Source: Eledone cirrhosa
Taxonomy: Eukaryota
DNA length: 64,000 nt
Assembly: GCA_964016885.1 (NCBI GenBank)
Contig: OZ024741.1
Location: 412,176,001 to 412,240,000 of the forward strand
Reading direction: 5' to 3'
This document shows positions 18,001-59,200 of this stretch, piece by piece; positions within the stretch are counted from its first letter, which is position 1; every line of letters begins with the position of its first letter. A program made the translations under genes and the position numbers. The notes under the pieces were generated by a model. That model did no database searches, was not told where the DNA came from, and saw only the letters and a list, made by a program, of their open reading frames with translations.

Positions 18001-20679
18001 CCCTTTCATTACTATATTTCTAATGTAAGACACTGTCTATGTTGTTTAACCCTTTCATTACCATATTTCTAATGTAAGACACTGTCTATGTTGTTTAACC
18101 CTTTCATTACCATATTTCTAATGTAAGACACTGTCTATGTTGTTTAACCCTTTCACTACCATGTTTATAATGTAAGACAATGTCTATGTTGTTTAACCCT
18201 TCATTAGCATATTTCTAATGTAAGACACTGTCTATGTTCTTTAACCCTTTCATTAACATATTTCTAATGTAAGACACTGTCTATGTTGTTGAACCCTTTC
18301 ATTAACATATTTGTAATGTAAGACACTGTCTATGTTGTTTAACCCTTTAATTACCATATTTCTAATGTAAGACACTGTCTATGTTGTTTAACCCTTTCAT
18401 TACCATATTTGTAATGTAAGACACTTTGTATCTTGTTTAACCCTTTCATTACCATATTTCTAATGTAAGACACTGTCTATGTTGTTTAACCCTTTCATTA
18501 ACATATTTCTAATGTAAGACACTGTCTATGTTGTTTAACCCTTTCATTACCATATTTCTAATGTAAGACACTGTCTATGTTGTTTAACCCTTTCATTACC
18601 ATATTTCTAATGTAAGACACTGTCTATGTTGTTTAACCCTTTCATTACCATATTTCTAATGTAAGACACTGTCTATGTTGTTTAACCCTTTAATTACCAT
18701 ATTTCTAATGTAAGACACTGTCTATGTTGTTTAACCCTTTCATTACCATATTTCTAATGTAAGACACTGTCTATGTTGTTTAACCCTTTCATTACCATAT
18801 TTCTAATGTAAGACACTGTCTATGTTGTTTAACCCTTTCATTACCATATTTCTAATGTAAGACACTGTCTATGTTGTTTAACCCTTTAATTACCATATTT
18901 CTAATGTAAGACACTGTCTATGTTGTTTAACCCTTTCATTACCATATTTCTAATGTAAGACACTGTCTATGTTGTTTAACCCTTTCATTACCATATTTCT
19001 AATATAAGACACTGTCTATGTTGTTTAACCCTTTAATTACCATATTTCTAATGTAAGACACTGTCTATGTTGTTTGACCCTTTCATTACTATATTTCTAA
19101 TGTAAGACACTGTCTATGTTGTTTAACCCTTTCATTACCATATTTCTAATGAAAGACACTGTCTATGTTGTTTAACCCTTTCATTACCATATTTGTAATG
19201 TAAGACACTGTGTATCTTGTTTAACCTTTCATTACCATATTTCTAATGTAAGACACCGTCTATGTTGTTTAACCCTTTCATTAACATATTTCTAATGTAA
19301 GACAATGTCTATTTTGTTTAACCCTTTCATTTCCATATTTTTAATGTAAGACACTGTCTATGTTGTTTAATCCTTTCATTACCATATTTCTAATGTAAGA
19401 CACTGTCTATGTTGTTTAACCCTTTCGTTACCATATTTGTAATGTAAGACACTGTGTATGTTGTTTAACCCTTTCATTACCATATTTCTAATGAAAGACA
19501 CTGTCTATGTTGTTTAATCCTTTCATTACCATATTTCTAATGTAAGACACTGTCTATGTTGTTTAACCCTTTCATTACCATATTTCTAATGAAAGACACT
19601 GTCTATGTTGTTTAACCCTTTCGTTACCATATTTGTAATGTAAGACACTTTGTATCTTGTTTAACCCTTTCATTACCATATTTCTAATGTAAGACACTGT
19701 CTATGTTGTTTAACCCTTTCATTACCATATTTGTAATGTAAGACACTCTCTATGTTGTTTAACCCTTTCATTACCATATTTGTAATGTAAGACACTGTCT
19801 ATGTTGTTTAACCCTTACATTACCATATTTCTAATGTAAGACACTGTCTATGTTGTTTAACCCTTTCATTACCATATTTCTAATGAAAGACACTGTCTAT
19901 GTTGTTTAACCCTTTCTTTACCATGTTTCTAATGTAAGACACTATCTATGTCTTTAACCCTTTCAGTACCGTATTTCTAATGAAAGACACTGTTTATGTC
20001 TTTAACCCTTTCATTACCATATTTCTAATGTAAGACACTGTCTATGTCTTTAACCCTTTCAGTACCGTATTTCTAATGTAAGACACTATCTATGTCTTTA
20101 ACCCTTTCAGTACCGTATTTCTAATGAAAGACACTGTTTATGTCTTTAACCCTTTCAGTACCATATTTCTAATGTAAGACACTGTCTATGTCTTTAACCC
20201 TTTCAGTACCGTATTTCTAATGTAAGACACTGTCTATGTTGTTTGAGCCTTTCATTACCATATTTCTAATGTAAGACACTGTCTATATTGTTTAACCCTT
20301 TCATTACCATATTTCTAATGTAAGACACTGTCTATGTTGTTTAACCCTTTCATTACCATATATCTAATGTAAGACACTGTCTATGTTGTTTAACCCTTTC
20401 ATTAGCATATTTCTAATGAAAACACTGTCTATGTTGTTTAACCCTTTCATTACCATATTTCTAATGTAAGACACTCTCTATGCTGTTTAACCCTTTCATT
20501 ACCATATTCGTAATGTAAGACACTGTCTATGTTGTTTAACCCTTTCACTACCATGTTTATAATGTAAGACACTGTCTATGTTGTTTAACCCTTTCACTAC
20601 CATGTTTATAATGTAAGACAATGTCTATGTTGTTTAACCCTGTCCTTACCATATTTCTAATAAAAGACATTGTCTATGG
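1..20679. repeat. 49-bp satellite array (~420 copies, runs off the left edge); consensus TTGTTTAACCCTTTCATTACCATATTTCTAATGWAAGACACTGTCTATG
   Basis: Continuous tandem unit of 49 nt with point variants and occasional small indels; recurring variant cassettes indicate higher-order structure. Confidence 0.99.
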
Positions 20680-25499: not shown

Positions 25500-28400
25500 T
25501 AAGACATCCTCTCTAGTGCTGGTGGCACAAATAAAAGCACCCAGTCCATGCTGTAAAGTGGCGCTGGTGTTAGGAAGGGCATCCAACCAGTGTATCAATG
25601 CCAAAACGCTTATCAGCACAGCAACAAATAGATAGGAACAACAACAAAATATGAAGACGTCGCATCTCAGAGTTGCAACACTTAATGATGGCACTCTCAG
25701 AGGTAGATCTGCTGAAATAGCAGAGATGCTGGAGAGAAGGCATGTGGATGTGTGCTGCATGCAAGAGGTGAGATCGAGAGGTACCTCTGCGAGATTAGTC
25801 CTAGGCAAACATCTTAGCTATAAGCTTTTCTGGGTAGGTAAGGATGATGGGTTAGGGAGAGTAGGCATTTTTCTGGCTGAGAGATAGATCAATAAGACAA
25901 TAGAGGTAGTTCGAGTTAGTAATCGAATAATTAAGCTTAGATTAGTTGTAGGCAAGAGACTACTGACAATCATCTCGGCCTATGATCCCCAAGCAAGCCA
26001 AGGCAAAGATGAGAAAGACTGCTTTTACGAGCAACTTTTACAAACATCCGCAATGACATAGGACGGAGACATCGTTATGCTAGCAGGGGACTTCAATAGT
26101 CATGTTGGACAGCTCCAGGATGGTTACACTGGGGTACACGGGGGGCACGGTTACGGCTCAAGAAATGAAGAAGGAGTGAGACTTCTTGAATTTTGTGATG
26201 CAAGTGCACTAACCATTTGGAACACTAACTTCCAGAAACCTGCCAACCACCTAATAACCTACAAATCTGGCGAGCACATAAGCCAGATTGACTTCTTACT
26301 CGTTAGGCAGCGGGATAGGCAGATAGTGTCTAATACCAAGGCATACCCTGGGGAAAAATGTACCCCACAGCATAGGTTAGTCGTTAGTGATATCTCAGTA
26401 AGCAAGAGATGGAATGAGACATACAGGAAGGTGTGGAGAAGAAAGGTCTGGAAGCTAAAAGACCTTTCACTAAAATACAAATTTAGGAAAGCTTTTCAAG
26501 ATGTGTATGACGAAAAAGAAGACGATTTAAAGACGTATGACATAGATAATAACTGGAATTTCTTATGTGACAACTTACTGCAGACTACTGATGAAACTTG
26601 TGGCTGGAGCAGAGCTCCAACCAGCCAGAGAGTGACCTGGTGGTGGAACAGCACAGTAGATAAGGCCATTAGAGACAAAAGACTAGCATGGAAGGCTTGG
26701 AAAAAGGGTGGGAAGATGTTCTGCAATGGGAAGACCAGAGGCGTGCGGTGTTCTACATTGCAAGTCAGTATGTCAATGCAAATCAGGATGTTGTTGCAGA
26801 TAAATGTGTCCGGAATGATGCCGGTGTACTTAGTGTCACGAATGATCAGAAAATGGAGGCCGGGAAATATCATTATGAGAGACTGATGAATGTGGAGAAC
26901 GAATGGGACAGAGAGAAATTACCCACAGTAGATCCGACAGAGGGACCAGCTATTGAGATTGACGAATATAGGGTCCAAGAGGCGATTAAGGAAATGAAAA
27001 ATGGTAATGCTGCTGGACCATCGAGGATAGTTGCTGAGATGCTGAAGGCATCAGGGGACGTAGTCACTAAACTGGTTGCACGCATCATCAATCAGGCTAT
27101 ATATGGTTGTGTCATACCCAAAGACTGGTGCAGCAGTATTCTCCTAAATTGCTACAAAGGTAAAGGGGATGTTCTGGAGACGAGCAATTATAGGAGTATA
27201 AAACTGATGGATCAGGTTATGAAAGTTGCAGAAAGGATATTAGCACAACTAAAAGGGTCAAACTAGATGAGCTGCAGTTTGGTTTTGTGTCTGGGAAGAG
27301 TACAACAGATGCCCTCTTCTTGGTGAGACAATTAGAAGAAAGGTTCTTAGAGAAAAATTAGCCACTATACTTAGCCTTTGTTGACGTAGAGAAGGACTTT
27401 GTTAGGGTACCCCGATCTGTCATCTGGTGGTCCCTAAGGAAACTAGGTGTTGAGGAATGGCTTGTGAGGACAGTGAAAACTTTGTACAGAGGTACTGTCA
27501 GTAAAGTCAGGGTAGGAATGGAGTTTAGTGAGTAATTCCAGATACAAGTAGGAGTACATCAAGGTTCGGTCCTCAGCCCGCTCTTGTGCATTATAGTCCT
27601 CCAAGCTATAACAGAGGAGTTTAAGACTGGCTGTCCATGGGAACTTCTCTATGCTGACGATCTGGTTCTTATAGCAGTAGAGGAGCTAGAGAATAAATTC
27701 TGGCTATGGAAACAGCAGTTGGAAGCAAGAGGACTGAGAGTAAATCTAGCTAAGACAAAAGTGTTGATGAGTAGAAAAGAGGACAAAACTCTGATTCCGT
27801 CAGGGAAATGGCCATGTTCGATATGCAGAAAAGGAACTGGTATAAATTCTATAAAATGCACACAATGCAGATCTTGGGTACACAAGAGATGTAGCGGGAT
27901 AGCAGGCAAACTAACAGGTAGGGAGAAATACGTATGCAGTAGATGTACATGGAAATTAGACAGTAGAAGTCGCATTGATAGACACATTTTTCAAATGCAG
28001 GCGGGTGCTATAGAAGAGTGGTGGATAGCTTCTGGTACCTAGGAGATCAGATTAGCATGGGAGGGGGTGTTCCAAGGCCATAGTATCTAGAATAAGGACG
28101 GGTTGGAAAAAGTTTAGGGAGCTACTTCCTCTGCTGACAAAGAAGGGTTTCTCCCTGCATACAAAAGGCCAGTTATATGATGCCTGTGTGAGGAGCGTGA
28201 TGCTGCATGGTAGTGAGACATGGGCAGCAACTGCAGAGGATATGCGACAGCTGGAGAGAAATGAGGCAAGCATGTCCGTTGGATGTGCAATGTCAATGTG
28301 CGTGAACGACCCAGCATAAATGTGTTGAGAGAGAAACTGTGTCTGAAAGGGATAGAATGTAGTGTGCGAGAGAGGAGACTGAGGTGGTATGGACATGTGA

Positions 28401-29445: not shown

Positions 29446-29457
29446 TATATATATATA

Positions 29458-29633
29458 TAATATAGAAGAGCTTCTACAGGACTAGAACTGTTTCATTCAG
29501 GGAGCTAATGATGTCTCATGAATGAAACAGTTCTAGTCCTGTAGAAGCTCTTCTATATTAAAACTTTTATACTCTGCTATGTATTGAGTACCTTACTTAC
29601 TGTGGTTACCTCCGATTCAACCCGGAATAACTT
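29458..29633 (+). mobile_element. Minimal fold-back insertion with a hammerhead 3' half and Penelope-type tail
   Basis: 42-bp inverted arms 29458-29499/29519-29560; GAAACAG-8nt-CTGTA at 29524-29543; TATTGAGTAC motif downstream. Confidence 0.6.
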
Positions 29634-32600
29634 ATCATCATCATCATCATCATCATCATCAGGTTTAGCGTCCGTGTTCCACGCTTGCATGGGTTTGGAC
29701 GGGGGTTTTCCCACTTGAGGCAAGAGTGGTTGTCTTGCTCGCATAGGACTGTCTGGCGGGTTTTCTACAGTTGGATGCCCTTCCTAACACCAACCACATT
29801 TACAGTGTGGGGCTGGGAGGTTTTTACCGTGTTGCCTACACGGCCACATTACAGCGTGGACTGTCTGGCGGGTTTTCTACAGCTGGATGCCCTTCCTAAC
29901 ACCAACCACATTTACAGTGTGGGGCTGGGAGGTTTTTACCGTGTTGCCTACACGGCCACATTTACAGCGTGGACTGTGTGTTTTTTGTCGTGACACCTAC
30001 ACGATCTCATTTGTTTCGGCCTGGATGTTGTGGGACCAACATAACTTTACATTGAAAGGGGCGGTGTGGGTGGGGTGGAGGTGGTGGGACGGGGGGTGTT
30101 TTGATAGAGATGCCTACTGACTGTAGTAGGTTTTTACTTTGTATTTAGGTAAGGCGGGTCTTCTCTATTACTGAGTACCGCCAAAGGTCTCGGTCCAGTG
30201 ACATTGTCTTGGAGAGGTGTAAGCGTGTGAGGTCGAAATTTATCAGCTCGTCCCATGTTTTTCTGGGTCTGCCTACTCCGTGGCTACCGTCTATCTTTAT
30301 TGCCCTGCACTTTGTTATACAGCTGTCGTCTTTCATGCGCATCACGTGACCGTACCAACATAGCCTTCTCTCGAGTAAACAACATCTGATCCCTCTTATT
30401 TCTAATTTTTTCCTTAGTTCGTTTATGCTTTGCCGTTCACGTATATTACTATTGCACATCCAGCGGAGCATGCAAGCTTCATTCCTCTCTAGTCTGCGTA
30501 TATCCTCTGCACACAATGCCCAGGTCTCACTGCCATGCAGCATTGCTGTTCGTATGCAGGCATCGTATAACCTGCCTTTCATTTTTAGGGAGAACCCTCT
30601 AGCGGCTAATAGTGGTATAAGCTCTCTGAACTTTTTCCATCCAGTTCTGACTCTAGCTACTGTACTTTCAGAGCACCCTCCCCCACTGCTGATTTTGTCA
30701 CCCAGATAACGGAAGCTGTCCACTATTTCTATAGAACCCTCTGCGCAGTTGAAGGAGCTAGTATTTTGTGGGCACTTGCTGCTACTTATTGCACCAGAGC
30801 ACCGGCCACATGTAAAATCTATGTTCTTAGTTAGCTTACCTGTGATCCCACTACATCTTTTATGCACCCATACTTTGCATTTGGGACATAAAATGGAGTT
30901 TCTACCTACGCCTTTCCTACACACTGAGCATGGCCATTTCCCAGATGGGACCGCCGCCTTATTTTCTTTCCTACAAACTAGAACTTTAGTCTTAGCCAGG
31001 TTAATTTTAAGGCCTTTTGATTCTAGGCCGTGCTTCCACGTTTGGAATTTCTTCTCTAGTTCGGTCATTGATTCAGCTATGAGCGTTAGATCATCTGCGT
31101 ATAGGAGTTCCCATGGGCAGCCGGTCTTGAACTCCTCTGTTATAGCCTGAAGGGCAATAATAAATAGTAGGGGGCTAAGAACAGAGCCCTGATGGACACC
31201 AACTTTTACGCTAAACTCTTCACTATATTCGTTGTTAATTCTAACCTTACTGACTGTTTCTTTATACATGGCTTGTATAGCTCTCACAAGCCATTCGTCA
31301 ACACCTAGTTTTCTAAGAGACCACCAGATAATGGAACGGGGGACTCTGTCGAAGGCTTTCTCCAAGTCGACGAAAGCTAAGTATAGGGGTTTACTTTTAG
31401 CTAGGTACTTCTCCTGTAGTTGTCGTACAATGAAAAGAGCGTCTGTGGTACTTTTGCCTGACACAAACCCGAACTGCATTTCATCTAGATCAATTCTCTC
31501 TCTGATTAGTTGCGCTATTACTTTTTCCGTGACCTTCATGACCTGGTCGATTAATTTAATGCCTCTATAGTTACTCCTATCTAGGGCATCTCCTTTTCCC
31601 TTATAGCAGTTAACGATGATGCTGCTACGCCATTCCTTCGGAACAACCCCATTCTGTACGACTTGGTTAACTATCCGGGTGACCATGGTGTGTCCCACCG
31701 AACCAGATGCCTTCAGCATCTCAGCAACTATTTCCGAAGGCCCAGCCGCCTTACCTGTCTTCATATCTTTGATTCCCTTACTTATTATACTACCTTTAAC
31801 TAACACTGCTGGTCCCTCTATTGGATCGATCTGGGGGAGACTGTCTTTCTCCCATTTGTTCTCCTCATTTAGAAGCCTTTCGTAGTGACACTTCCAAGCT
31901 ACCTTCTTATCAGCGTCGGTGATGGCAAGTATGCCATCATCGTTAAGTACACACTTCTCCCCGACAATATCACGGTTTTCCTTGACACATTGCCTGGCAA
32001 TCCTGAACACCTCACGTTTTTGGTCCTCACGTTGTAGAACATGCTTGAACTTTCTTTCCTCTGCTTCCCTTCTTGCGAAGTACACTTGTCTCCTAGCTTC
32101 CCTCCTGGCCACTTGATAGTCTTCTCTACTTCCCCCATCCCGCCATACTTTCCAAGCCTGCTTTTCGGCCTTAATTGACTCCTCCACCTTACTGTTCCAC
32201 CACCATGTTACTCTCCTCCTACCTACAGGCCTGCTCCAGCCACAGACCTCGTCTGCCGCCGTCAGCAGGGTTGCTCTCAGGAATTCCCACTGTTCCTCTA
32301 TATTATACGACTCTAATTGCTCTTCCTTACTGTCGAAAGCGTCAAGTAATATGCTTTGGAATTTATTTCTGGCTATGGGGTCCTTTAGCTTCCATATTTT
32401 TCTCCTGAGGATAGTCCTCTTCCGCTGTCTAGTACGTCTCGTCCTGACTATGAGGTCGCTAATTATCAGTCTATGTTGGGAGGTGAATTCTTCATGGGGG
32501 TGGGATTTAGTGTTAACAACAGACACTCTGTCACGTCTTCTGGTAAGGATATAATCTACCTGGCTTGTGTGTTCCCCCGATCTATAGGTGATCAAGTGAT

Positions 32601-33525
32601 TGTCTCGTTTTTTTAAGTTAGTGTTACAGATAGTTAAGTTATTTGCGTCGCAGAATTCCAGGATTCTGGAGCCTTCCTCATTTCTAGTACCGAACCCATA
32701 GCCTCCATGGATTCCGTCATAGCCGTCACAATGTTGTCCAACGTGACCATTTAGGTCGCCTGCAATAACTATATAGTCACTGTCGGTTATTTGGGAGGTA
32801 GCGAGCATCAGTGTCTCGTAGAATCTGTCTTTTATAGCGCCGGGCAGTCCGGATTGGGGTGCGTACGCAGATATTACTGTCACCGTAGTTTTATTGAGGA
32901 CAAGTCTTATTTTAATTATTCTGTCGTTCACTCTATTTACGTCTATTATCTTATCTGCCCACTTTTCTGCTACCATGATTCCTACCCCACCCAACCCATT
33001 GTCATTTCCCACCCAGAAAAGCTTATAGCATCGTTCTTTACCCACGATGAATCTAGCCGACCCTCCCCTCCACCTGGTCTCTTGAATACAACAAACATCG
33101 ACCTCCTTACGTTCAAGCATTTCTACAACCTCGTTAGAGCGACCCTTTAAGGTGCCTACATTCATGGTACCAACTCTGAAGTTTTGGATTGCGTTTGGAG
33201 GGTGGGAGCGGTGGGGAGCGGTGGGGGATGGGGTTATGTTAGCCATCCTGGGCCGAAACAAGGAGGAGTGCTTGCATTCTCGTCCACGAGGTGAATTTGG
33301 CTTTATCTTTGGCATTGTCGCTGAGCGTCCACATTTTTCTCTCTTCAACTCTCCAGAATTCCGTAGTCCATCCATCATATCGAAAAGCAACCAGTTAAGC
33401 GATAGTATGGGCCTCTGACTTATGATTGGTCCACGTAATAATGGTGGTGCGTGGGGGCGGGAGGGAGGGATGATGGGTTGTTAGCGAGAATGTAAGGTTT
33501 AAGATAAGATCGCCGTATTTTGGGC
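29634..33525 (-). mobile_element. Apparently full-length RTE-clade LINE
   Basis: Single long ORF, ~500-bp 3' UTR with an internal ~115-bp duplication, (GAT)n tail at 29634-29660; 5' boundary approximate. Confidence 0.93.
30145..33390 (-). CDS. RTE LINE polyprotein: AP endonuclease, reverse transcriptase, C4HC3 PHD-like finger
   Basis: 1081-aa uninterrupted ORF: VGTMNV, IQET, YAPQ, GDLNGHVG, QVDYIL, SQHRL (APE); QFGF, FVDLEKAFD, GVHQGSVLSPLLF, YADD (RT). First ATG is at 33378. Confidence 0.96.
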   Translation of the reverse strand: MLFDMMDGLRNSGELKREKCGRSATMPKIKPNSPRGRECKHSSLFRPRMANITPSPTAPHRSHPPNAIQNFRVGTMNVGTLKGRSNEVVEMLERKEVDVCCIQETRWRGGSARFIVGKERCYKLFWVGNDNGLGGVGIMVAEKWADKIIDVNRVNDRIIKIRLVLNKTTVTVISAYAPQSGLPGAIKDRFYETLMLATSQITDSDYIVIAGDLNGHVGQHCDGYDGIHGGYGFGTRNEEGSRILEFCDANNLTICNTNLKKRDNHLITYRSGEHTSQVDYILTRRRDRVSVVNTKSHPHEEFTSQHRLIISDLIVRTRRTRQRKRTILRRKIWKLKDPIARNKFQSILLDAFDSKEEQLESYNIEEQWEFLRATLLTAADEVCGWSRPVGRRRVTWWWNSKVEESIKAEKQAWKVWRDGGSREDYQVARREARRQVYFARREAEERKFKHVLQREDQKREVFRIARQCVKENRDIVGEKCVLNDDGILAITDADKKVAWKCHYERLLNEENKWEKDSLPQIDPIEGPAVLVKGSIISKGIKDMKTGKAAGPSEIVAEMLKASGSVGHTMVTRIVNQVVQNGVVPKEWRSSIIVNCYKGKGDALDRSNYRGIKLIDQVMKVTEKVIAQLIRERIDLDEMQFGFVSGKSTTDALFIVRQLQEKYLAKSKPLYLAFVDLEKAFDRVPRSIIWWSLRKLGVDEWLVRAIQAMYKETVSKVRINNEYSEEFSVKVGVHQGSVLSPLLFIIALQAITEEFKTGCPWELLYADDLTLIAESMTELEKKFQTWKHGLESKGLKINLAKTKVLVCRKENKAAVPSGKWPCSVCRKGVGRNSILCPKCKVWVHKRCSGITGKLTKNIDFTCGRCSGAISSSKCPQNTSSFNCAEGSIEIVDSFRYLGDKISSGGGCSESTVARVRTGWKKFRELIPLLAARGFSLKMKGRLYDACIRTAMLHGSETWALCAEDIRRLERNEACMLRWMCNSNIRERQSINELRKKLEIRGIRCCLLERRLCWYGHVMRMKDDSCITKCRAIKIDGSHGVGRPRKTWDELINFDLTRLHLSKTMSLDRDLWRYSVIEKTRLT

Positions 33526-34575: not shown

Positions 34576-35277
34576 CAAAGCCCCTTCTGTCCACATATAT
34601 TATGCAACAATGCATAATTGGTGTATGTGGCTTCATCAGTGGGCTTCGCCTAATCAATAACCAATCGATCAACAGAATTCGACTTCAGTCCATGCCAGCT
34701 ATGACTGTATGTGACGGCCAACACAGTAAAACGTTGGTAACTGGAATCTCTACGTGTCACAATGCCGTCTCCTGATTGGCTACCGATTTATAAATTTACG
34801 TGATGACAGGAGACGAAATTCAAGTAGTTCCGCTCTCACCATAAGCACTCAGCCAACAAATCTCAAACACAAATTAACAAGTTAGTGAAAAATTGGTTAT
34901 TAGAGAAATTAGTAGCATTCGACTCTAGTCTCCAAGTCCCATGGCGAGAAATAATGCGATAGTAATAATGGTAGGGCCTACAACCTTTCCAGACATTAAA
35001 TACCAACCGGTGATTACACAGCGATATAGAATAGTGCGTTGGTTAGAATCTGAATTCTAGATGTTTCAGCCAACCACGTGTGTAAACCGGTTTATTTCAC
35101 AACTTGTACGATTTAATAAACTTGTACATATATATATATATATATATAATGGTAAAAAAACTGGGAGGTTATATCTGTAGTAAGTAGAGTACTCAATGAA
35201 GAGGACGGGTTCAGGTTGAAAATCCATTGGGTGAAACTCACATCCTCGTGTATGGTCTGCTAACTTGTTGTGGAAAT

Positions 35278-35348
<71 letters not shown>

Positions 35349-35349
<1 letters not shown>

Positions 35350-37520
35350 CCGTAGGATCTCCACCCTCTCTTCCTCAGAAGCTATTTTCAATAAGGCATC
35401 CCCCTACTATAATAAAGCCCTTCAAAATAGCGGATTTAGCAAACCGATTAAGTACATACCCAACAATACTAACTCTTTTAAACATAATAATAGGAAAAGA
35501 AAAATAATCTGGTTCACATCCCCCTACTCTCTAGCAGTTAAAACTAATGTAGGCAAAACATTCCTAGAGCTCTTAGATAAACATTTCCCTAGAACACATA
35601 GATACTATAAGATCTTCAATAGAAACTGTGTCAAAATTAGCTACTCATGCGGTCCCCCTATTAAATCTTATATCATCAATAAGAAATCACCCAGAGAACA
35701 TCAAAATTGCTCCTGTAGAGTCAAAAGTGAATGCCCATTACAAGGTAAATGCAACACCAAAAGCCATTGTATATGCGGCTAAAGTGACAACCATCAGCAA
35801 CAACCAACCAGCCACCAGCGAACGATATGTGGGTATGACACAAGACAGATTCAAAACGCGGTATTATTCACATGTCGCATCTTTCCGACATCCAGAAAAA
35901 AGATTCACAACAGCTCTGGCTAGCAGAATATGGGATTTGAAAGACCAAGGTATCCAATATAAATTGGATTGGTCAATTTTGAACCAATCTAAAGAATATG
36001 CACAAGGAACAAGAAGATGCACACTCTGCATAAGTGAAAAATATTGGATTTTACAGAACCTTAAATCACCAAAAACCTGCCTAAATACAAAAACAGAAAT
36101 TTTCACCAGTTGCTCACACATGAAATCACACTTGCTTTCCAGCTCATATAAACTTAACTCACTTTCAGATACTTATCCTCCATAAACTCTTATTCTTCAC
36201 TTTCCTTAAATTGTCCTCTTTACAGACTTCTCTTTCTGATTTACTTTCAATTTTAACTTTATTTTTAATTTTATTTTTATTTTTATTTTTATTTTTATTT
36301 TTATTTTTATTTTTACTTCACATCCACCAGTACCCCCCCCTACTTTTCGATTCACTTACCTAATATCTTCACATTCCACATTTTACTTCCCCATTTTCTT
36401 TCACTACCTGATACCACATGTCACTTGCGTTTTCCACTCCAGGTATATTCTGTTGTTTCGCAGCCGATTTTATATTTGTACTCATTTATTCATATTTATA
36501 ATCTGTATCTATGTGTCTGAGTGTGCTTATGTGTGTATACGTTCTGTATATGTATACGAACGCCTCCGTATGTGTGCGTGCGTACGTATATATATGTGTG
36601 TGTATGTGTGTTTTTATATCTATGTTCTTTTATATCTATGTTTTTTACATTCTTATTTTTACGTGTGTGTGTGTATGCGGGTGAATGTATGTGTATGTGT
36701 ATGTATATGTATATGTATGTATGGGTGTGTATGTATATGTGTATATATATATATAGGCGCATACGTACGTGTGATTAGATATACATGGGGCGATATATAT
36801 ATATATGTGCCTCGTGTGTATGTATGTATGCATGCGCTTTTGTCTGTACGTATTTGTGTGTATAAATATTTTTTTATATAGATATGTGTGTGTACGTGCG
36901 TACCTATGTTTGTTTTCTTTTTTCTAGTGTTAATTGATTACTTTCTCTTTGATTTAAACATTTTTTCATTCTCATATATTGTTTCATTTTTATACATATA
37001 TCGAGAATGACACTTCTTTTTACTATTACACTCCCTTCTCTCTTTATCTTCCGCATATAAGTGACCGCGCGTGTGTGTGTGTTTATACGCGTGCTTTCAT
37101 ACTCATATGTATATTTAATACCTGTATCTGGATGCGTGTCAACTATATTTTCATACAATTTCTTTTTCAACTCATATTATATACGTATTTGTGGTCACAT
37201 ATACACAAATATACTTTCCCTCATATATGTACTTACGCACACATTTTCACCATACACATGCATTTGTACATACACACATATGGACATTTGTGAGTGTATA
37301 TACATACATATACACATACCCTAACTATATTTCCTTATATTTTTTTATATATCATTACTTTTATTTATATATGTTTTGCATCTCTTGAGGAGACTTTCCA
37401 AATATTTCACTATGTTTGAAATTGCCTTGTCCGACGAACGAATGAGGACGTTTTCGTATTCGTCTTATTCGGGAAACCTCTGGTAATGAGGTAATTATAT
37501 TGTATTGTTTATTATACATT
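35349..37520 (+). mobile_element. 5'-truncated Penelope-like element (RT thumb, Cys linker, GIY-YIG, long 3' tail) inserted in (TA)n
   Basis: RRISTLSSSEAIF, IIWFTSPYS, VKISYSC, CSC...CPLQGKC, frameshift, IVY...YVGMT..FKTRY..H, CTLCISEK; hammerhead motif near the 3' end. Confidence 0.9.
37425..37491 (+). ncRNA. Type I hammerhead ribozyme-like motif with CCGACGA core variant
   Basis: Stem I CCTTGT/ATGAGG; CCGACGA; stem II CGAATGAGGACG/CGTCTTATTCG; GAAACC-TCT-GGTA (predicted cleavage after 37485). Confidence 0.65.
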
Positions 37521-37535
37521 ATATATATATATATA

Positions 37536-37726
37536 ACGAAGGAAATGTGGTAAGGAACCAGGTGGACCATAACGCACCAAAGTACTCAATACTTAGAGTA
37601 GTAGAGTGGGTAATAGGAACGAGTAGGACCCCGACGGCTGAGCTCAAGCCGTTTCGACGGCTAATTCTGGACTCCAGAATTAGCCGTCGAAACGGCTTGA
37701 GCTCAGCCGTCGGGGTCCTACTCGTT

Positions 37727-37731
<5 letters not shown>
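37536..37731 (-). mobile_element. Minimal fold-back insertion: perfect 59-bp-arm palindrome plus tail, between (TA)n tracts
   Basis: 37613-37671 and 37673-37731 are exact reverse complements; contains GAAACGGCT-TGAGCTC-AGCCGTC (hammerhead stem III and GUC); TATTGAGTAC in the tail. Confidence 0.75.
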
Positions 37732-37767
<36 letters not shown>

Positions 37768-37974
37768 ATATAGTATTAAGGATACTATTTATGGTTATGT
37801 ATATACTAAAACCTTTTATAGTTATATATATTTTATACCCTAAATAGTGAAAGACAGTAATTTATTACTATCTTATTACCAGTAAGATAAATAGCTCAAT
37901 GTAACAACATCAGTTGTTTTACAGAGCAGTTATATAGAGATTACATGAAACAAAGTTTTGTTTAAATCATTTAT

Positions 37975-38023
37975 TTGCTTACAATTGTTTCTTCCAAACC
38001 GAGATTTGGAGTCTTCGGAGCAA
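37975..38023 (-). ncRNA. Minimal type I hammerhead-like motif (CCGAAGA core), left copy
   Basis: Reverse complement of 39443-39491. Confidence 0.7.
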
Positions 38024-39442
38024 TTATTCAGTGATTTTTAACATACTTGACCTCCTTATCAACACAAGAGACATATAGAAACATATGTATATATTGACCC
38101 ACAGTGGGTTGACATCCATTGTAATAATATAGCATGGTATTTTACATACAAAGATTACAGTCATATTAAAGGACAAAATTAAAGTTAAAATTAAAATAAA
38201 ACATTGCATTGGCAGTATACTAAGATAAAGCAAGTGTATGTAACAGTCACACCTGTGGCATGCACGCGTGTCCTATTTATACAAGATTATAGTGCGGCAG
38301 ATTGTTACAAGTAAAACAAGCAGTCAAAGCAGGCAATCAAGAGCATCATGGGGGCTGTACTTGTAAAGCATTATTCACTACACACCTGTACGATATAGAA
38401 GCCCGTGTATGGAGAAACACCAAAAATATCAAAAATATTACAAATGAGAAGCAAAACAGCACCACTTTCCTCGTACACACCACCACTCTCACAATCCAGG
38501 AAATGCAATTTATAGACTACATGTCCATCTCACAATCCACGATGATTCAACATTGGGTGCCTGGTGAACCATGATAGAAGGTAATCATCCTAATATGAAC
38601 ACCTTTAGTACTTCTTGATAGACTACACTGTAATTTATAGATAAGATACTTAAATTTAGAAATTGTTTATAACCTTATATGATAGGAATTCATTTGGGAC
38701 ACCATTAATGTACTTTGGATAATAAATTTAGCTATAGAAATCAGCTAGTTACCTCCCCTTAAGCATTAACTCCCCTTAATCACACACACACTTCCGGAAT
38801 ATAATGCGATGTCATCTCTCACAACAAAAACAACCTACTCTATAGAATCAAATTAATGAACGACAAGCTGTGATGTTCTAGCATGGTTCACCAGGCACCC
38901 AATGTTGAATCATCGTGGATTGTGAGATGGACATGTAGTCTATAAATTGTATTTCCTGGATTGTGAGAGTGGTGGTGTGTACGAGGACAGTGGTGCTGTT
39001 TTGCTTCTCATTTGTAATATTTTTGATATTTTTGGTGTTTCTCCACACACGGGCTTCTATATCGTACAGGTGTGTGTGAATAATGCTTTACAAGTACAGC
39101 CCCTATGGTGCTCTTGATTGCCTGCTTTGACTGCTTGTTTTACTTGTAACAATCTGCCGCACTATAATCTTGTATAAATAGGACACGCGTGCATGCCACA
39201 GGTGTGACTGTTACATACACTTGCTTTATCTTAGTAGACTGCCAATGCAATGTTTTATTTTAATTTTAATTTTAATTTTAACTTTAATTTTGTCCTTTAA
39301 TATGACTGTAATCTTTGTATGTAAATTACCATGCTATATTATTATAATGGATGTTAACCCACTGTGGGTCAATATATACATATGTTTCTATATGTCTCTT
39401 GTGTTGATAAGAAGGTCAAGTATGTTAAAAATCACTGAATAA

Positions 39443-39491
39443 TTGCTCCGAAGACTCCAAATCTCGGTTTGGAAGAAACAATTGTAAGCAA
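39443..39491 (+). ncRNA. Minimal type I hammerhead-like motif (CCGAAGA core), right copy
   Basis: Stem I TTGCT/AGCAA; CCGAAGA; stem II TCCAAA/TTTGGA; GAAAC-AATT-GTA with palindromic stem III; AATAAA immediately after. Confidence 0.7.
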
Positions 39492-39642
39492 ATAAATGAT
39501 TTAAACAAAACTTTGTTTCATGTAATCTCTATATATATAAATATGTATATATATATAGAGAGAGAGATGATTATCATTTAGAGAGAGTATGTGTATGTGA
39601 GTAAAAGAGAGTGTATGAGAGAGAGTAGGTATGTGTTTGAGA

Positions 39643-47080: not shown

Positions 47081-49561
47081 CGTAAAATAAGAAAATTATA
47101 AAATTAACTTACTTACTAAAATATATATATATATATATATATAAAATTTCAGGTTATCAATAATGTAGTGATAATATATCGTTACGTTAGAGATGAACAG
47201 CGTACGTGCAGGTTTGCTCAACGAGTATAAATTATATTCCGGAGAAATGTAGAAAGGATGAATATAAAATGAAAGTGCTTTTTTTAAAAAAGGAATTTAT
47301 TAGGTATTGACATATGTTTCTGTAACAGACGGAATACCTATGTATCGCTGCTTGCGTAATCATATAACGTTAGCAAGTATTCGATAGCAAATGTATAATC
47401 AGTTGTCACTTCTTCAGAGATTTTGGATAAGTGGGATAAAATCAGAAAATTTGAAGTATTTATATTAGTAATAGAGGAAGAAAAAGAGGGGATAGTATAT
47501 GACAGATGGTAAATTAATTTACTGCTAAACAAGTATATAATGGGTTTCTAATGAGAATACCATGAGTAAATGGTTCATTTGATCTAAATAAGAATTTTTG
47601 GGAGTGCCAATTTTAATCTCTACTTGACCAATTGGACAGTGGACAGAGCTGGTCATTTGGTGTAGTAGTATTAATTATAAAGTGTCAATTGGGGAAGGGG
47701 GAGATTTCGATTGCTACTGAATAACATCAATGCTAGTAGCCAGCTGGTATATGCATTAGGGAATTGAATTAAGAAATCAGAAATCTCATTTTATCTATAG
47801 CAGTTTATATTAAAAGGTAAATAATAGAAGAGTTGATAGAATTAAGACTAATAAAGAATGTTCATATCTATTTTGACAATCAAACGGGGATAGAGACAGG
47901 CGTTCAATCCTGGTAGTATTTATAATATGAAAATGTAGATTTTAAGCGATGGTTACAGTATAACGATCGCTCTATTCTGTTATTTAATAAAATGTTTTTG
48001 GATTTTATAATACAAAATAATTCTACATTACATAATTTACAAAATTCCTGTCCATGGGATTATGGGGGGGGGGGGGCAGCCTCTATTATATCCCATTTTA
48101 GGTGAAATTGTTGGTTATTTTCACGCAGCTGCCAAGTCTTGTCTGCGAGTGTTGTTACATAACGCTGGTTTTCATGTTTTATCGAGTATCGATGTCTATA
48201 AAGGCGTGATTTGAAGGAGGTGGCTGTAGATCCCACATAGTACCACTTCTGTCTATCCGATTCGATAGTACATTTGTATACGATGTTGCGTTCAAGACAC
48301 TGATTGTTCAACGGACACATTCCTGGTTGGACACAGTTGCAATTATAATTTTGCGTTGTTGTATTGCCATGGATTTATTGATGAGGTTGCTTATGTAGGA
48401 CAGGATGTTGTTTGTTGTTTTGTGATGTTATAGCTAATGTTTTACGTGTATTGTTATGTGTTGGAAGGCGTTTATACAACCGTTTTGCGTTAAGCTTTTT
48501 TATATGTTGTTCAATATTAGGGGCGGTTGAATATGAAAGTCGAATAGTGTTAGGGTTTAAGATTTTATTATATTTATGTGATGTTGGAAAGTGTTTTTTA
48601 ACTAATCGAAAGAATTGTGAGGGTAGATTGGTTTTAATAGAGTTGTTATAGACCGGGTTGTACCAAATATACTCCTTACACTGCCTTCTGTTTGGTGGTG
48701 TGCGACTATTATTGTGTCTATTGCGGTAGTGTATGTATGGTGGTGATTCTGTGCTATTTCTACTCCTATGGGATTTATTTTGGGTGTTTTGGTGATCTTT
48801 GACTATATACTCTATATTATCTAGGTGACCGGCTTTCCTAAGTGCTGCCCCCCCCCCATATTCCCATGGACAGGAATTTTGTAAATTATGTAATGTAGAA
48901 TTATTTTGTATTATGAAATCCAAAAACATTTTATTAAATAACAGAATAGAGCGATCGTTATACTGTAACCATCGCTTAAAATCTACATTTTCATATTATA
49001 AATACTACCAGGATTGAACGCCTGTCTCTATCCCCGTTTGATTGTCAAAATAGATATTAACATTCTTTATTAGTCTTAATTCTATCAACTCTTCTATTAT
49101 TTACCTTTTAATACAAACTGCTATAGATAAAATGAGATTTCTGATTTCTTGATTCAATTCCCTAATGCATATACCAGCTGGCTACTAGCATTGATGTTAT
49201 TTAGTAGCAATCGAAATCTCATCCTTCCCCAATTGACACTTTATAATTTATACTACTGCACCAAATGACCAGCCCTGTCCACTGTCCAGTTGGTCAAGTA
49301 GAGATTAAAATTGGCACTCCCAAAATTCTTATTTAGATTTACTCATGGTATTCTCATTAGAAACCCATTATATACTTGTTTAGCAGTAAATTAATTTACC
49401 ATCTGTCATATACTATCCCCTCTGTTTCTTCCTCTATTACTAATATAAATACTTCAATTTTTCTGATTTTATCCAATTTATCCAAAATCTCTGAAGAAGT
49501 GACAACTGATTATACATTTGCTATCGAATACTTGCTAACATTATATGATTACGCAAGCAGC

Positions 49562-49612
49562 GATACATAGGTATTCCGTCTGTTACAGAAACATATGTCA
49601 ATACCTAATAAA
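49562..49612 (+). ncRNA. Degenerate hammerhead-like motif in the Penelope pseudo-LTR (also at ~53890-53938 and inverted at ~47295-47345)
   Basis: TAGGTATT/AATACCTA stem closes CCGTCTGTTACA-GAAAC-ATAT-GTC; AATAAA follows; a CTGAAGA lies upstream at 49491. Confidence 0.45.
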
Positions 49613-49813: not shown

Positions 49814-52100
49814 ATGGAATGGCACCAATTGGATATGTCGTTAAAAAACATACCTATTCAGGCAAAAAGGGAATATATTCTAGGTATGATACGAAGGACC
49901 AATGATTTTATTCGACGAATCAGATGGAAAACATTCCATTTTGACAAAAGCCGTATAAACCAAACATCGGATCTTAACAAGGATAAATTTGGATTTAAAT
50001 CTTACAAGAACCCACCCTCAAACCCACTTTTGGATGCATTTGAACAAGACCTAATGGATATGATCATGGAGATCAAATTTACAAAACGGAAGAACAATAA
50101 ACTACAGAATGACATCACGGCACTGCTCAATAATCTAAAAAACGCCAATGGAATTATTGTTAGAGCAGACAAAACATCAAACCTATATACCATGGATGTG
50201 GACACTTACAATAACTTCATCCGTAAGGAATTGCATAAAAAATACAGGAAAACTAATGAAGCTACACTTAAAAACATCAACAACTCGGCATGTGATATTG
50301 TTAAAAAACTTTATATTGACGATAGAACGCAACCCTTAATACCAGCTATACCATCCTTCAACCTGAAGGACCACAAGGTAAACTTCGATACTAACCCTAA
50401 TATTAGACTTATATGCCCCTCTAAATCTGATATAGGCAAAATTAGAAAATATATACTAGACAGAATTATCCCCCAAGTTAAGGTTAAAGTAGAGATTAAA
50501 CTATGGGGTAACACTCATGAAGCAATAAGATGGTTTAATAACATTACTGATAAGAAAAAATCAAAATTTATTCAGTTTGATATTGATGAATATTATTCCT
50601 CAATTTCACCTGATACTCTACATGAAGCTCTTTCGTTCGCTAAGGATAATTCCGACCTTACGGATGCTGAAATTAAAATTATTATGGAAGCGACGAAAAC
50701 TATAGTTAAATTCAATGATAGCTACTGGTTTCGCAAAGATAGACCTTCTAATTTTGATATTACTATGGGTTCTAATGATTCGGCGGAAGTAACAGATCTT
50801 GTGGGAATTTATATCACCCACAGATTACAAGGAAAATTCAAGGATCTCCACGGTGGAATCTACCGTGACGATGCGCTCCTATTAGTTAAGCATATGAATA
50901 ACCAGAATTTAGAAAGGATGCGTAAAAATATCAGAAAGCTTTTTAAGGAACTAGGATTAAATATTACATTTGAATATAACCTCAAAGAGGTCAATTTCCT
51001 TGATGTTACTTTCAATCTCAATACAGATACGATTAAACCGTCCCATAAACTAAATGAGAACCTTAAATATGTAAATACGAGTTCTAACCATCCACTCTCT
51101 ATAATTAAATCCATCCCTAGAAATGTTTCTCTTAGAATCTCCCGCCTGTCGTCCAACCAACAAACCTTCAAAGAACATGCCGAATATTATGATGATGCAC
51201 TTAGGAAAGCCGGTCACCTAGATAATATAGAGTATATAGTCAAAGATCACCAAAACACCCAAAATAAATCCCATAGTAGAAATAGCACAGAATCACCACC
51301 ATACATACACTACCGCAATAGACAATAATAGTCGCACACCACCAAACAGAAGGCGATGTAAAGAGTATATTTGGTACAACCCGGTCTATAACAACTCTAT
51401 TAAAACCAATCTACCCTCAAAATTCTTTCGATTAGTTAAAAAACACTTTCCAACATCACATAAATATAATAAAATCTTAAACCCTAACACTATTCGACTT
51501 TCATATTCAACCGCCCCTAATATTGAACAACATATAAAAAAGCTTAACGCAAAACGGTTGTATAAACGCCTTCCAACACATAACAATACACGTAAAACAT
51601 TAGCTATAACATCACAAAACAACAAACAACATCCTGTCCTACATAAGCAACCTCATCAACCTATCCATGGCAATACAACAACGCAAAATTATAATTGCAA
51701 CTGTGTCCAACCAGGAATGTGTCCGTTGAACAATCAGTGTCTTGAACGCAACATCGTATACAAATGTACTATCGAATCGGATAGACAGAAGTGGTACTAC
51801 GTGGGATCTACAGCCACCTCCTTCAAATTACGCCTTTATAGACATCGTTACTCGATAAAACATGAAAACCAGCGTTATGTAACAACACTCGCAGACAAGG
51901 CTTGGCAGCTGCGTGAAAATAACCAACAATTTCACCTAAAATAGGATATAATAGCGGCTGCCCCCCCCCCCCCCCCCATATTCCCATGGACAGGAATTTT
52001 GTAAATTATGTAATGTAGAATTATTTTGTATTATGAAATCCAAAAACATTTTATTAAATAACAGAATAGAGCGATCGTTATACTGTAACCATCGCTTAAA
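49814..52100 (+). pseudogene. Penelope-like RT-GIY-YIG ORF with frameshifts and a stop (Naiad-like Cys linker)
   Basis: SLKNIP, ADKTSN, FDIDEYYSSI, MGSNDSAEV, YRDDAL, FLDVTF, SNHP; CNC-x5-CP-x4-C; NIVY...YVGST...R..H; CKLC; break at 51328, TAG at 51942. Confidence 0.93.
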
Positions 52101-52416
52101 ATCTACATTTTCATATTATAAATACTACCAGGATTGAACGCCTGTCTCTATCTCCGTTTGATTGTCAAAATAGATATTAACATTCTTTATTAGTCTTAAT
52201 TCTATCAACTCTTCTATTATTTACCTTTTAATACAAACTGCTATAGATAAAATGAGATTTCTGATTTCTTGATTCAATTCCCTAATGCATATACCAGCTG
52301 GCTACTAGCATTGATGTTATTTAGTAGCAATCGAAATCTCCCCCTTCCCCAATTGACACTTTATAATTTATACTACTGTCCAGTTGGTCAAGTAGAGATT
52401 AAAATTGGCACTCCAA

Positions 52417-53641
52417 TTTCCAACTAGAGAATAAATTCCAAACCTGGAAGCAGGGACTAGAGAGAAAGGGCCTCAAAGTCAACATGACAAAGACTAAGGT
52501 CCTTATAAGTAGACGAGAAAACAGAACCCAGATCCCCTCAGGGAAATGGCCTTGCTCAGTATGTAGGAAAGGTGTAGGTAGGAACTCCATTCTCTGCCCC
52601 AAATGCAAACAATGGGTACACAAGAGATGTAGCGGGATCTCAGGAAGCTTAATTAAGAATGTAGGATTCACATGCAGCAGCTGTGCTGAAACAGCAAGCA
52701 AACAGCCACAGGAAACAAGTACCACCAATCTCTGGGAGGGCCCTGTAGAAACAGTAGACAGCTTCTGCTACCTAGGTGACCGAATTAGCAACGGAGGTGG
52801 GTGCTCAGAAAGTACAATAACTAGGGTAAGAACGGGATGGAAGAAGTTTAGGGAACTACTACCACTGCTAGCTGCAAAAGGCTTCTCCCTCAGAATGAAA
52901 GGCAGACTGTATGATGCGTGTATCCGAACAGCGATGTTGCATGGTAGTGAGACCTGGGCGCTGAAGGTGGAAGACTTACGTAGATTAGAGAGAAACGAAG
53001 CCTGCATGCTCCGATGGATGTGTAACAGTAATATACGTGAACGACAAAGCATAAAGGAATTGAGAGAGAGACTGAGCATAAGAGGAATCAAATGCTGCGT
53101 GCAGGAGAGGCGGTTACGCTGGTATGGACATGTGATGCGTATGAAGGATGACAGCTGCATAAAAAGGTGCAGAGCACTAGAAGTTGATGGAAACCGCGGA
53201 GTGGGGAGACCCAAGATGACTTGGGATGAGGTGATAAAAGCCGACCTTACCCAACTACACCTCTCAAAGTCAATGACACACGACCGTGACTTCTGGCGTC
53301 ACGCAGTAATACAGGGTACCCGACCTCCCATGGGTACATGCTGAAGCATATAAACAATATGCCCCCCCCCCCACCGCAAGGTGGTCGTGGAGGTGCCACG
53401 GCAAAAAAGCACCCAGCCCACACTGTAAAGTGGACGTGTAGGCGCCACGAAAAAGCACCCAGCACTCACTGTAAATGAGGTTGGTGTTAGGAAGGGCATC
53501 CAGCTGTAGAAATCAAGCCAGATCAGTTCCTGTATGAGCAAGGCATGGTCAGCCGACCAGACACTGCCCACAACAGGACAACCCGTCTAACCCATGCTAG
53601 CGTGGAAGAACAGACGTAAAACGGTGATGATGATGATGATG
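52417..53641 (+). mobile_element. 5'-truncated RTE LINE nested in the Penelope 3' pseudo-LTR
   Basis: ORF 52484-53344 is similar to the C-terminus of 30145-33390; (GAT)n tail; target duplication ACTCC(C)AA at 52410 and 53642. Confidence 0.93.
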
Positions 53642-56094: not shown

Positions 56095-56125
<31 letters not shown>

Positions 56126-56243
56126 AATCAACAACAACATCAACAACAACCACACAACAACAACAACCACAATAACAAAAACAACATCAACAACAACCAC
56201 ACAACAACAACAACAACAACCACAACAACCACAACAACAACAT
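56005..56243. repeat. Degenerate (CAA)n microsatellite
   Basis: Directly visible. Confidence 0.95.
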
Positions 56244-59200
56244 CATGACTGCTATATTCTTAGTTAACTGTAGCATGACGGCTATTACCTTAGTTAACTG
56301 TAACATGATTGCTATTAACTTAGTTAACTGTAACATGACTGCTATTACCTTAGTAAACTGTAACATGACTGCTATTACCTTAGTTAACTGTAACATGACT
56401 GCTATTACCTTAGTTAACTGTAACACGACTGCTATTACCTTAGTTAACTGTAACATGACTGCTATTACCTTAGTTAACTGAAACATGACTGCTATTACCT
56501 TAGTTAACTGTAACATGACTGCTATTACCTTAGTTAACTGTAACATGACTGCTAATATCTTAGTTAACTGTAACATGGCTGCTATTACCTTAGTTAACTG
56601 TAACATGACAGCTATTATCTTAGTTAACTGTTACATGACTGCTATTATCTTAGTTAAATGTAACATGACTGCTGTTATCTTAGTTAACTGTAACATGACT
56701 GCTATTACATTAGTTAACTGTAACATGACTGCTATTACCTTAGTTAACTGTAACATGGCTGCTATTATCTTAGTTAACTGTAACATGACTGCTATTATCT
56801 TAGTTAAATGTAACGTGACTGCTATTATCTTAGTTAAATGTAACATCACAACTATTACCTTAGTTAACTGTAACATGACTGATATTATCTTAGTTAACTG
56901 TAACATGGCTGCTATTACCTTAGTTAACTGTAACATGGCTGCTATTATCTTAGTTAACTGTAACATGACTGCTATTATCTTAGTTAACTGTAACTTGACT
57001 GCTATTACCTTAGTTAACTGTAACATGGCTGCTATTATCTTAGTTAACTGTAACATGACTGCTATTCTCTTAGTTAACTGTAACTTGACTGCTATTACCT
57101 TAGTTAACTGTAACATGACTGCTATTATCTTAGTTAAATGTAACATGACTGCTATTATCTTAGTTAACTGTAACATGACTGCTATTATCTTAGTTAACTG
57201 TAACATGACTGCAATAACCTTAGTTAACTGTAACATGGCTGCTATTATCTTAGTTAACTGTAACGTGGATGCTATTACCTTTGTTAACTGTAACGTGGCT
57301 GCAATTATCTTAGTTAACTGTAACATGACTGCTATGACCTTAGTTAACTGTAAGATGACTGCTATTACCTTAGTTAACTGTAACATGACTGCTATTATCT
57401 TAGTTAACTGTAACATGGCTGTTATTATATTAGTTAACTGTAACATGACTGCTATTACCTTAGTTAACTGTAACATGACTGCTATTACCTTAGTTAACTG
57501 TAACATGACTGCTATTACCTTAGTTAAATATAACATGGCTGCTATTATCTTAGTTAACTGTAACATGACTGCTATTATCTTAGTTAACTGTAACATGGCT
57601 GCTATTATCTTACTTAACTGTAACATGACTCCTATTATCTTAGTTAACTGTAACATGACTGCTATTATCTTAGTTAACTGTAACATGACTGCTATTATCT
57701 TAGTTAACTGTAACTTGACTGCTATTACCTTAGTTAACTCTAACATGACTGCTATTATCTTAGTTAAATGTAACATGACTGCTATTATCTTAGTTAACTG
57801 TAACATGACTGCTATTATCTTAGTTAACTGTAACATGGCTGCTATTAACTTAGTTAACTGTAGCATGGCTGCTATTAACTTAGTTAACTGTAACATGACT
57901 GCTATTATCTTAGTTAACTGTAACATGACTGCTATTATCTTAGTTAACTGTAATATGACTGCTATAACCTTAGTTAACTGTAACATGGCTGCTATTATCT
58001 TAGTTAACTGTAACGTGGATGCTATTACCTTTGTTAACTGTAACATGGCTGCAATTATCTTAGTTAACTGTAACATGACTGCTATTACCTTAGTTAACTG
58101 TAAGATGACTGCTATTACCTTAGTTAACTGTAACATGGCTGCTATTATCTTAGTTAACTGTAACATGACTGCTATTACCTTAGTTAACTGTAACATGACA
58201 GCTATTATCTTAGTTAACTGTTACATGACTGCTATTATCTTAGTTAACTGTAACATGGCTGCTATTATCTTAGTTAACTGTAACATGGCTGCTATTACCT
58301 TAGTTAACTGTAACATGACAGCTATTAACTTAGTTAACTGTAACATGACTGCTATTAACTTAGTTAACTGTAACATGGCTGCTATTAACTTAGTTAACTG
58401 TAACATGGCTGCTATTAACTTAGTTAACTGTAACATGGCTGCTATTAACTTAGTTAACTGTAACATGACTGCTATGACCTTAGTTAACTGTAAGATGACT
58501 GCTATTACCTTAGTTAACTGTAACATGACTGCTATTATCTTAGTTAACTGTAACATGGCTGCTATTATATTAGTTAACTGTAACATGACTGCTATTACCT
58601 TAGTTAACTGTAACATGACTGCTATTACCTTAGTTAACTGTAACATGACTGCTATTACCTTAGTTAACTGTAACATGACTGCTATTATCTTAGTTAACTG
58701 TAACATGACTGCTATTATCTTAGTTAACTGTAACATGGCTGCTATTAACTTAGTTAACTGTAGCATGGCTGCTATTAACTTAGTTAACTGTAACATGACT
58801 GCTATTATCTTAGTTAACTGTAACATGGCTGCTATTAACTTAGTTAACTGTAGCATGGCTGCTATTAACTTAGTTAACTGTAACATGACTGCTATTATCT
58901 TAGTTAACTGTAACATGACTGCTATTATCTTAGTTAACTGTAACATGACTGCTATAACCTTAGTTAACTGTAACATGGCTGCTATTATCTTAGTTAACTG
59001 TAACGTGGATGCTATTACCTTTGTTAACTGTAACGTGGCTGCAATTATCTTAGTTAACTGTAACATGACTGCTATTACCTTAGTTAACTGTAAGATGACT
59101 GCTATTACCTTAGTTAACTGTAACATGACTGCTATTATCTTATTTAACTGTAACAAGGCTACTATTATCTTAGTTAACTGTAACATGACTGCTATTACCT

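Follow-up and report, generated by a model that had tools for sequence, protein, structure and literature searches.

Are hammerhead ribozyme motifs that read CCGANGA, where the canonical core reads CUGANGA, damaged copies, or has the cytosine at core position 4 (C4 in place of U4) become the regular state of whole transposable element families, and could such motifs still cleave? The question is raised by two motifs, here called A and B, in a 64,000-nucleotide (nt) stretch of the Eledone cirrhosa genome (contig OZ024741.1), referred to below as the window. An earlier note, made from the letters of the window, had read them as a lineage-specific hammerhead variant in unrelated Penelope-type tails. 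C4 is a family state of A and B and not damage. Sequence comparison and predicted folding further suggest that A and B are terminal-repeat hammerheads of Hydra-clade Penelope-like elements (PLEs) that probably still cleave, slowly and with assistance from a dimer or a protein.

Hammerhead layouts and the elements that carry them

A descriptor applied to both strands of the 64-kb window returned three hammerhead layouts only, at 37431 (+), 39448 (+) and 38018 (-), all of them with C4 (Table 1). Motifs A and B each form a three-way junction with an open stem I, stems I, II and III having 11, 11 and 3 base pairs (bp) in A and 5, 7 and 4 bp in B. In motif A, stem I (37420-37430/37486-37496) leads into the core CCGACGA (37431-37437), an A/G mismatch (37438/37472) opens a stem II with one bulge, and GAA (37473-37475) is followed by a stem III of ACC/GGU with a UCU loop, A17 lying at 37485. 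Motif B has its stem I at 39443-39447/39487-39491, its core CCGAAGA at 39448-39454, a C/A mismatch (39455/39474) where stem II begins, and A17 at 39486; its stem III is a perfect palindrome, ACAAUUGU, for which AAUU and AGCU variants occur among B copies. C3, G5, A6, G8, A9, G12, A13, A14, A15.1-U16.1 and H17 are all present in A and B, which depart from the canonical layout at position 4 and at the G10.1-C11.1 pair, replaced by the two mismatches and variable across B copies. The coordinates and the scan bear out the earlier description of type I layouts with CCGANGA cores and an unpaired first pair of stem II. The hammerhead family is absent from the 25 Rfam matches to the window at E<=5.

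Judged by the sequence around them, motifs A and B lie in the terminal repeats of Hydra-clade PLEs. In A, in B and in family C, a third family of the window, the reverse transcriptase (RT) reading frame lies downstream of the motif and begins after about 250-330 nt; RT-bearing copies with the motif upstream are L042 and L049 for A and L101, L109 and L110 for B. The motif is repeated at the 3' end of the element, followed by a short tail and (TA)n. In the part of the source covered here, the Hydra clade is described by an RWK motif, DKT in place of DKG, a CxCX5C linker and, at the C-terminus, a GIY-YIG-type endonuclease (Craig et al., 2021; PMC8557442). The RT motifs of the present families are RMRWK and SDKT in A, RVRWR and ADKT in B, and RIRWK and ADKT in C. 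The linker is readable in the open reading frames (ORFs) of A and C, and the full B ORF terminates in a homologous endonuclease region. Insertion into (TA)n, a repeat containing hammerhead and tail, and inverted 5'-truncated copies are habits of the clade that recur here. Pfam gave no match on the window pieces of the PLE ORFs, and the assignment to the clade is based on protein motifs. Across the genome of 2.996 Gb, a pattern for the RT N-terminus has 3,542 copies (control 13; 85 of the first 100 places were examined), and the only species-named protein matches are from Argonauta, at 38-39%. The RT downstream of the motif and the Hydra-clade protein motifs support the Penelope-type origin that had been proposed for A and B.

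Cytosine at position 4 within and between families

Among the best 30 B copies, two of which are the window's own, C4 is present in all, as it is in 29 of 29 anchored A copies among the 30 best; both lists favour the query. This bias was avoided with family patterns that leave the core free (positions 3-8 in B), for which position 4 was counted by hand in the first 100 places listed, all on contig C1. Family B has 6,454 matches genome-wide (control 0), with 95 C4 and 5 U4 in the first 100. Older B subfamilies have 1,957 matches (83 C4, 12 U4, 4 A4 and 1 G4 in the first 100), and family A has 1,230 genome-wide (74 C4, 23 U4, 2 G4 and 1 A4). At core positions 3-8 other than 4, the hammerhead letters are the majority in these tallies of A and B. 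C4 is the majority in eight of nine multi-copy B clusters, partly found with a C4 pattern, and is tied in the ninth; their flanks differ by about 47% (ungapped). Contigs from two public runs show no alternative letter for position 39449 at or above the 5% cut-off for listing. The tally of C against U that the earlier note had proposed as a check came out, in the first 100 places of each, with a C4 majority in both families, in keeping with its suggestion of a family state rather than decay.

A pattern for motifs with a short stem III, CCGANGA..GAAACNNNNGTH, places these families in a wider setting. With C4 it has 12,022 matches genome-wide against 887 for the reversed pattern, with U4 13,271 (control 2,944), and with A4 or G4 3,277 (control 2,670). 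Measured against these controls, C4 and U4 are about equally common, and the purine-4 forms of this shape are near background. The U4 copies were also considered as mere CpG decay of C4, a reading that suits young B (5 U4 against 2 G5A) and fails for A, in which U4 distinguishes a subfamily. On a 57-row tree (57 of 82 copies were long enough), 9 of 11 U4 copies of family A fall in one branch, which indicates that U4 is inherited there and that both forms were amplified by source elements. The U4 branch and the C4 branches are similar in age (divergence 3.1% vs 3.3%), and U4 as a marker of an older A subfamily is therefore not supported.

The relationships among families were drawn from RT trees of 82 of 89 rows, seven with fewer than 250 aligned residues having been dropped. 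A maximum-likelihood tree of 32 rows is unrooted, uses LG+G4 without a mixture model, carries a long-branch warning and takes some labels from family mates. On it, A falls together with the U4 family L211 (99/99) and B with the U4 families L174 and L222 (100/100), and a third C4 motif, found in L196 with a second copy in L091, is placed among U4 families with long loops. Four changes at position 4 are needed, three of them U4C and one U4A. A single C4 origin was rejected, the approximately unbiased test excluding A+B (p 5e-6) and B+L196 (p 2e-49) as clades. By these trees, U4C arose independently at least three times. Exchange of terminal repeats between families is a possible alternative to independent origins, against which the A and B motifs each resemble their own U4 sisters. 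Of the proposed lineage-specific variant, the recurrence therefore stands, and C4 recurs independently; a single lineage-wide variant does not, since U4 is about as numerous, C4 occurs in particular families, a U4 subfamily of A is active and A4 is the state of one large family.

Family C had been put forward in the earlier note as a third family (49562-49612) with CCG directly after its stem I strand. It was rejected as a C4 case: the CCG at 49576 has no ANGA after it and is, like the supposed stem I strand, part of an expanded loop II, and the real core is the canonical CUGAAGA at 49491-49497. An A/A mismatch follows, and then stem II (49499-49504/49581-49586) around the long loop. The core aligns with those of the U4 sisters L159/L195/L226 and L190/L231, with loops equal in size, and across 30 loci CUGAAGA is found in 32 of 34 cores and U4 in 33 of 34. 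The long loop II of family C, L190, L195 and L226 contains a strand capable of pairing with stem I's 3' strand (8 bp in C; 49490-49610). The mismatch that opens stem II was likewise discarded as a companion of C4. U4 families of this genome open stem II with U/U, C/A or A/A, and U/U takes this place in 14 of the 26 Hydra rows of File S2 of Craig et al. (2021; PMC8557442), all 26 of which read CUGA; the mismatch is a general Hydra feature instead.

The core varies in other ways across the genome. In an A4 family (L168, L183, L225 and L234; e.g. C1 18181421-18181453), the core reads CAGAAGA, stem I has 5 bp and stem III is long; its predicted folding is dominated by an alternative structure in which the core is hidden. 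The C3-G8 pair is swapped for U3-A8 in three separate Hydra lineages (L161, L180, L182, L199, L232). Canonical U4 hammerheads with a stem-loop II of about 110-125 nt, beyond common descriptors, occur in L151, L171, L192 and L228. Further C4 motifs were seen in L236-L239, with a canonical G10.1-C11.1 stem II, a stem I of only 2 bp and a B-like tail, and in L240, with an 8-bp stem I; no RT is linked to these motifs.

In metagenome contigs, an own hammerhead was detectable in 63 of 78 Hydra-type loci (58 strict, 5 relaxed), which are partly redundant, and all 63 have U4; none was detected in the other 15 of the 78. One such contig from another organism (L345:1152) has an unrelated C4 motif upstream of a Hydra ORF whose 3' hammerhead has U4. 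The Hydra PLEs of Craig et al. (2021; PMC8557442), as far as that source was covered, resemble those described here in protein motifs, (TA)n targets, the place in terminal repeats, the palindromic stem III and the stem II mismatch. They differ in that their rows read CUGA only, whereas C4 and A4 are family states here and stem-loop II is much longer in several families. Minimal PLE hammerheads are alike in the type I layout, short stem I, palindromic stem III and U3-A8 swap, and are described in the text covered as weak, with a long stem II, and as dimer-acting or predicted dimers (Cervera and de la Pena, 2014; PMC4209133). A change at position 4 is absent from that text, and a C4 core from two supplements, the figure alignments falling outside this scope.

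The substitution itself has a precedent. A natural viroid hammerhead with U4C had reduced in vitro activity and supported infectivity (Ambros and Flores, 1998, as cited in the covered part of Perreault et al., 2011; PMC3088659), and this paper was the only one found on hammerheads combined with U4C. The viroid case is a single variant, in contrast to the repeated fixation in high-copy animal families seen here. A hammerhead descriptor with CYGANGA is in use in the covered part of PMC13481778. In phage DNA, a type I layout with U4C is formed by one of the 121 pattern matches listed. Fixation of C4 in PLEs or animal retrotransposon families was not found in the literature covered, outside which lie Lunse (2017) and Arkhipova (2017), which may mention it; the parts covered of PMC6765202, PMC6155905, PMC7229834, PMC3376415, PMC13282606 and PMC13725137 do not report C4 in PLEs. 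U4C is a known natural variant, and its repeated fixation in animal retrotransposon families is apparently unreported.

Continued cleavage and its alternatives

The hammerhead core looks selected in the copies at hand, the 3-8 pair having changed from C-G to U-A three times and copies with G5A or G8A seemingly not having been amplified. The first 100 copies of family A include 23 C4U against 3 G5A and 26 C7U against 2 G8A, and the first 100 of older B include 12 U4 against 2 G5A. In 24 B-type rows, 91.4% of stem cells are paired, a value reached by 0 of 500 shuffles, and six AU-to-GC double changes at one stem II pair, with one in stem III, agree with the earlier expectation that the stems stay paired and covary. 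Two B copies are predicted to co-fold as a double hammerhead (-25.4 kcal/mol).

How such motifs could still work can be outlined from known hammerheads. The phosphate that joins positions 6 and 7 is contacted by U4 (covered part of Perreault et al., 2011; PMC3088659), and because of this contact a C4 core would be expected to have a weaker turn and to cleave more slowly, though not to lose cleavage altogether. Pairing as a dimer, as predicted for B, might help, and so might the protein that the element encodes. The PLE hammerhead of PAc (Poseidon) cleaved only with the protein of the element, according to the part covered of Frangieh et al. (2024; PMC11167929). PAc likewise has a terminal-repeat hammerhead near the ORF start and the tail; it belongs to another PLE clade, and a position-4 change goes unmentioned in the covered part of that source. 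Slow or assisted cutting could be enough to release RNA of unit length from tandem transcripts or from read-through. If only such cutting is needed, position 4 would be able to drift (to U, C and once A) while the catalytic positions stay selected.

Several observations weigh against continued cleavage. Stem III of motif A is a poor palindrome, and two A copies are not predicted to co-fold as a double hammerhead. The predicted probability of the hammerhead fold in the monomer is 0.016 for A, 0.05 for B and 0.002 for the A4 family, and the monomers of A and B are not unusually stable (z -1.9 and -0.3). The covariation concerns few pairs in related rows. The substitution asymmetries overstate core selection because copies share ancestry and C-to-T is in excess elsewhere too: in family A it exceeds G-to-A also at several CpG sites outside the core, and away from CpG the values are 4.6% and 2.9%. 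In the viroid, U4C is said to lower cleavage about eight-fold, and U4A and U4G reportedly give no cleavage. The A4 family is the most abundant found, with 17,582 exact-pattern copies and A4 in all of the first 100. Stem I of family C has only 1 bp despite the youth of the family (copies about 99% identical), and some copies in one U3-A8 lineage (L179, L200) have an unpaired C3 with A8. The A4 family, the lost stem I of family C and the C3/A8 copies suggest erosion. In another PLE, hammerhead mutants retained in vitro insertion (covered part of Frangieh et al., 2024; PMC11167929).

These signs of erosion are also the ground for the best surviving alternative, in which the motifs have stopped cutting and are retained as a folded RNA handle serving, for instance, the RT-endonuclease, while catalytic details erode. 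It draws on the A4 state of the largest family found, family C without stem I and the existence of C3/A8 copies, and also on PAc, where cleavage was dispensable for in vitro insertion and no RNA ends were observed at the cut site (PMC11167929). Naiad elements, moreover, thrive without canonical hammerheads. A mere handle is nevertheless unlikely, given that G5, A6, A9, G12-A14, A15.1-U16.1 and a non-G17 are present in the recovered motifs (partly by construction of the descriptors), that the 3-8 pair covaries three times, and that A4 and G4 cores of the short-stem-III shape barely exceed background (3,277 vs 2,670).

Positive selection for C4, by which it would tune the ribozyme down or impose dependence on a dimer or protein and so spare the RNA from premature cutting, appears quite improbable. 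The contrast between three origins in this genome and none among 63 Hydra elements elsewhere would fit it, as would the C4 majority in eight of nine B clusters with flanks about 47% different, held although the site lies within CpG. Predicted folding gives a divided answer: C4 reduces the hammerhead fraction of A about six-fold, but no such effect is predicted for B (0.051 with C4 vs 0.066 with U4), and C4 as a general lock on the monomer was rejected with the effect found in A only. Moreover, amplification of the U4 branch of A roughly coincided with that of the C4 branches, most Hydra families in the genome keep U4, and the B clusters were found in part through a C4 pattern. The idea that the C4 copies arose from canonical hammerheads by decay or mis-assembly, or match by chance, consistent though it is with the lack of an Rfam score and weak monomer folds, is hardly credible and is refuted by the family tallies, with thousands of copies, zero control matches, a C4 majority and agreeing public contigs, and decay is unlikely to yield C4 because CpG mutation would run from C to U.

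A bolder version of continued cleavage, tentative but conceivable on these sequences, is that the core has been rebuilt repeatedly (U4C three times, U4A, U3-A8 three times and giant stem-loops II) and still cleaves, with the element protein replacing the turn contact of U4. If this is true, standard searches miss a protein-dependent hammerhead class by tens of thousands. Why PLEs keep hammerheads is an open question, as these cut poorly alone, one is protein-dependent and some clades are without them. The existence of matched sister families with U, C and A at position 4, all amplified to thousands, makes the question directly testable, and the C4 and U4 branches inside family A are among those comparisons. 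Slower-cutting C4 motifs, if still active, would be a natural test of the need of a transposon for its ribozyme. In practical terms, CUGANGA descriptors and Rfam miss about 11,000 C4 and at least 17,582 A4 motifs in one animal genome.

Features of the window

Table 1. Hammerhead motifs and Penelope-like element parts in the window (positions of the window).
Feature	Position	Strand	Basis or remark
Motif A, type I hammerhead layout with C4 core	37420..37496	+	Short tail, then (TA)n; predicted cut after A37485
Motif B, type I hammerhead layout with C4 core, palindromic stem III	39443..39491	+	Predicted cut after A39486
Motif B, inverted copy, C3 at 38018	37975..38023	-	Window-wide descriptor
Family C hammerhead, U4 core 49491-49497, 6-bp stem II, long loop, palindromic stem III	49490..49600	+	Alignment with U4 sisters
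Family C hammerhead, further copy	core at 53817	+	
Family C hammerhead, further copy	core at 47417	-	
Family A Hydra-type PLE, broken 3' ORF end, two frames (CxCX5C-type linker, GIY-YIG-type endonuclease)	35264..36185	+	ORFs; tblastn to family A copies; blastn to L209
Family B inverted fragment (3' untranslated region (UTR), hammerhead, 5' UTR start; no ORF)	37770..38579	-	blastn to RT-bearing L110/L155; inverted repeats I9, I11, I13
Family B fragment (3' UTR, hammerhead, tail, then (TA)n)	38717..39535	+	blastn to RT-bearing family B copies
Family C Hydra-clade PLE ORF (RT with RWK and DKT, CxCX5C linker, endonuclease)	49814..51944	+	ORFs; frameshifted near 51240-51325

At least five Hydra families are nested in the (TA)n tracts of the window. 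Two further Hydra families are present as short fold-back fragments, with the junction at or close to their hammerhead regions, at 37530-37731, between A and B, and at 29446-29634. Elements of long interspersed nuclear element (LINE) type with an endonuclease, RT and an inserted PHD finger are found at 30145-33480 (-), 26062-28042 and 52403-53344, including one open frame of 1,110 amino acids. The remaining features are repetitive: a tandem array with a unit of about 60 nt extends from about 40130 to at least 41500, another with a 30-nt unit and more than 250 copies covers about 56100-64000, and a strongly skewed stretch at 1-20000 resembles a long satellite.

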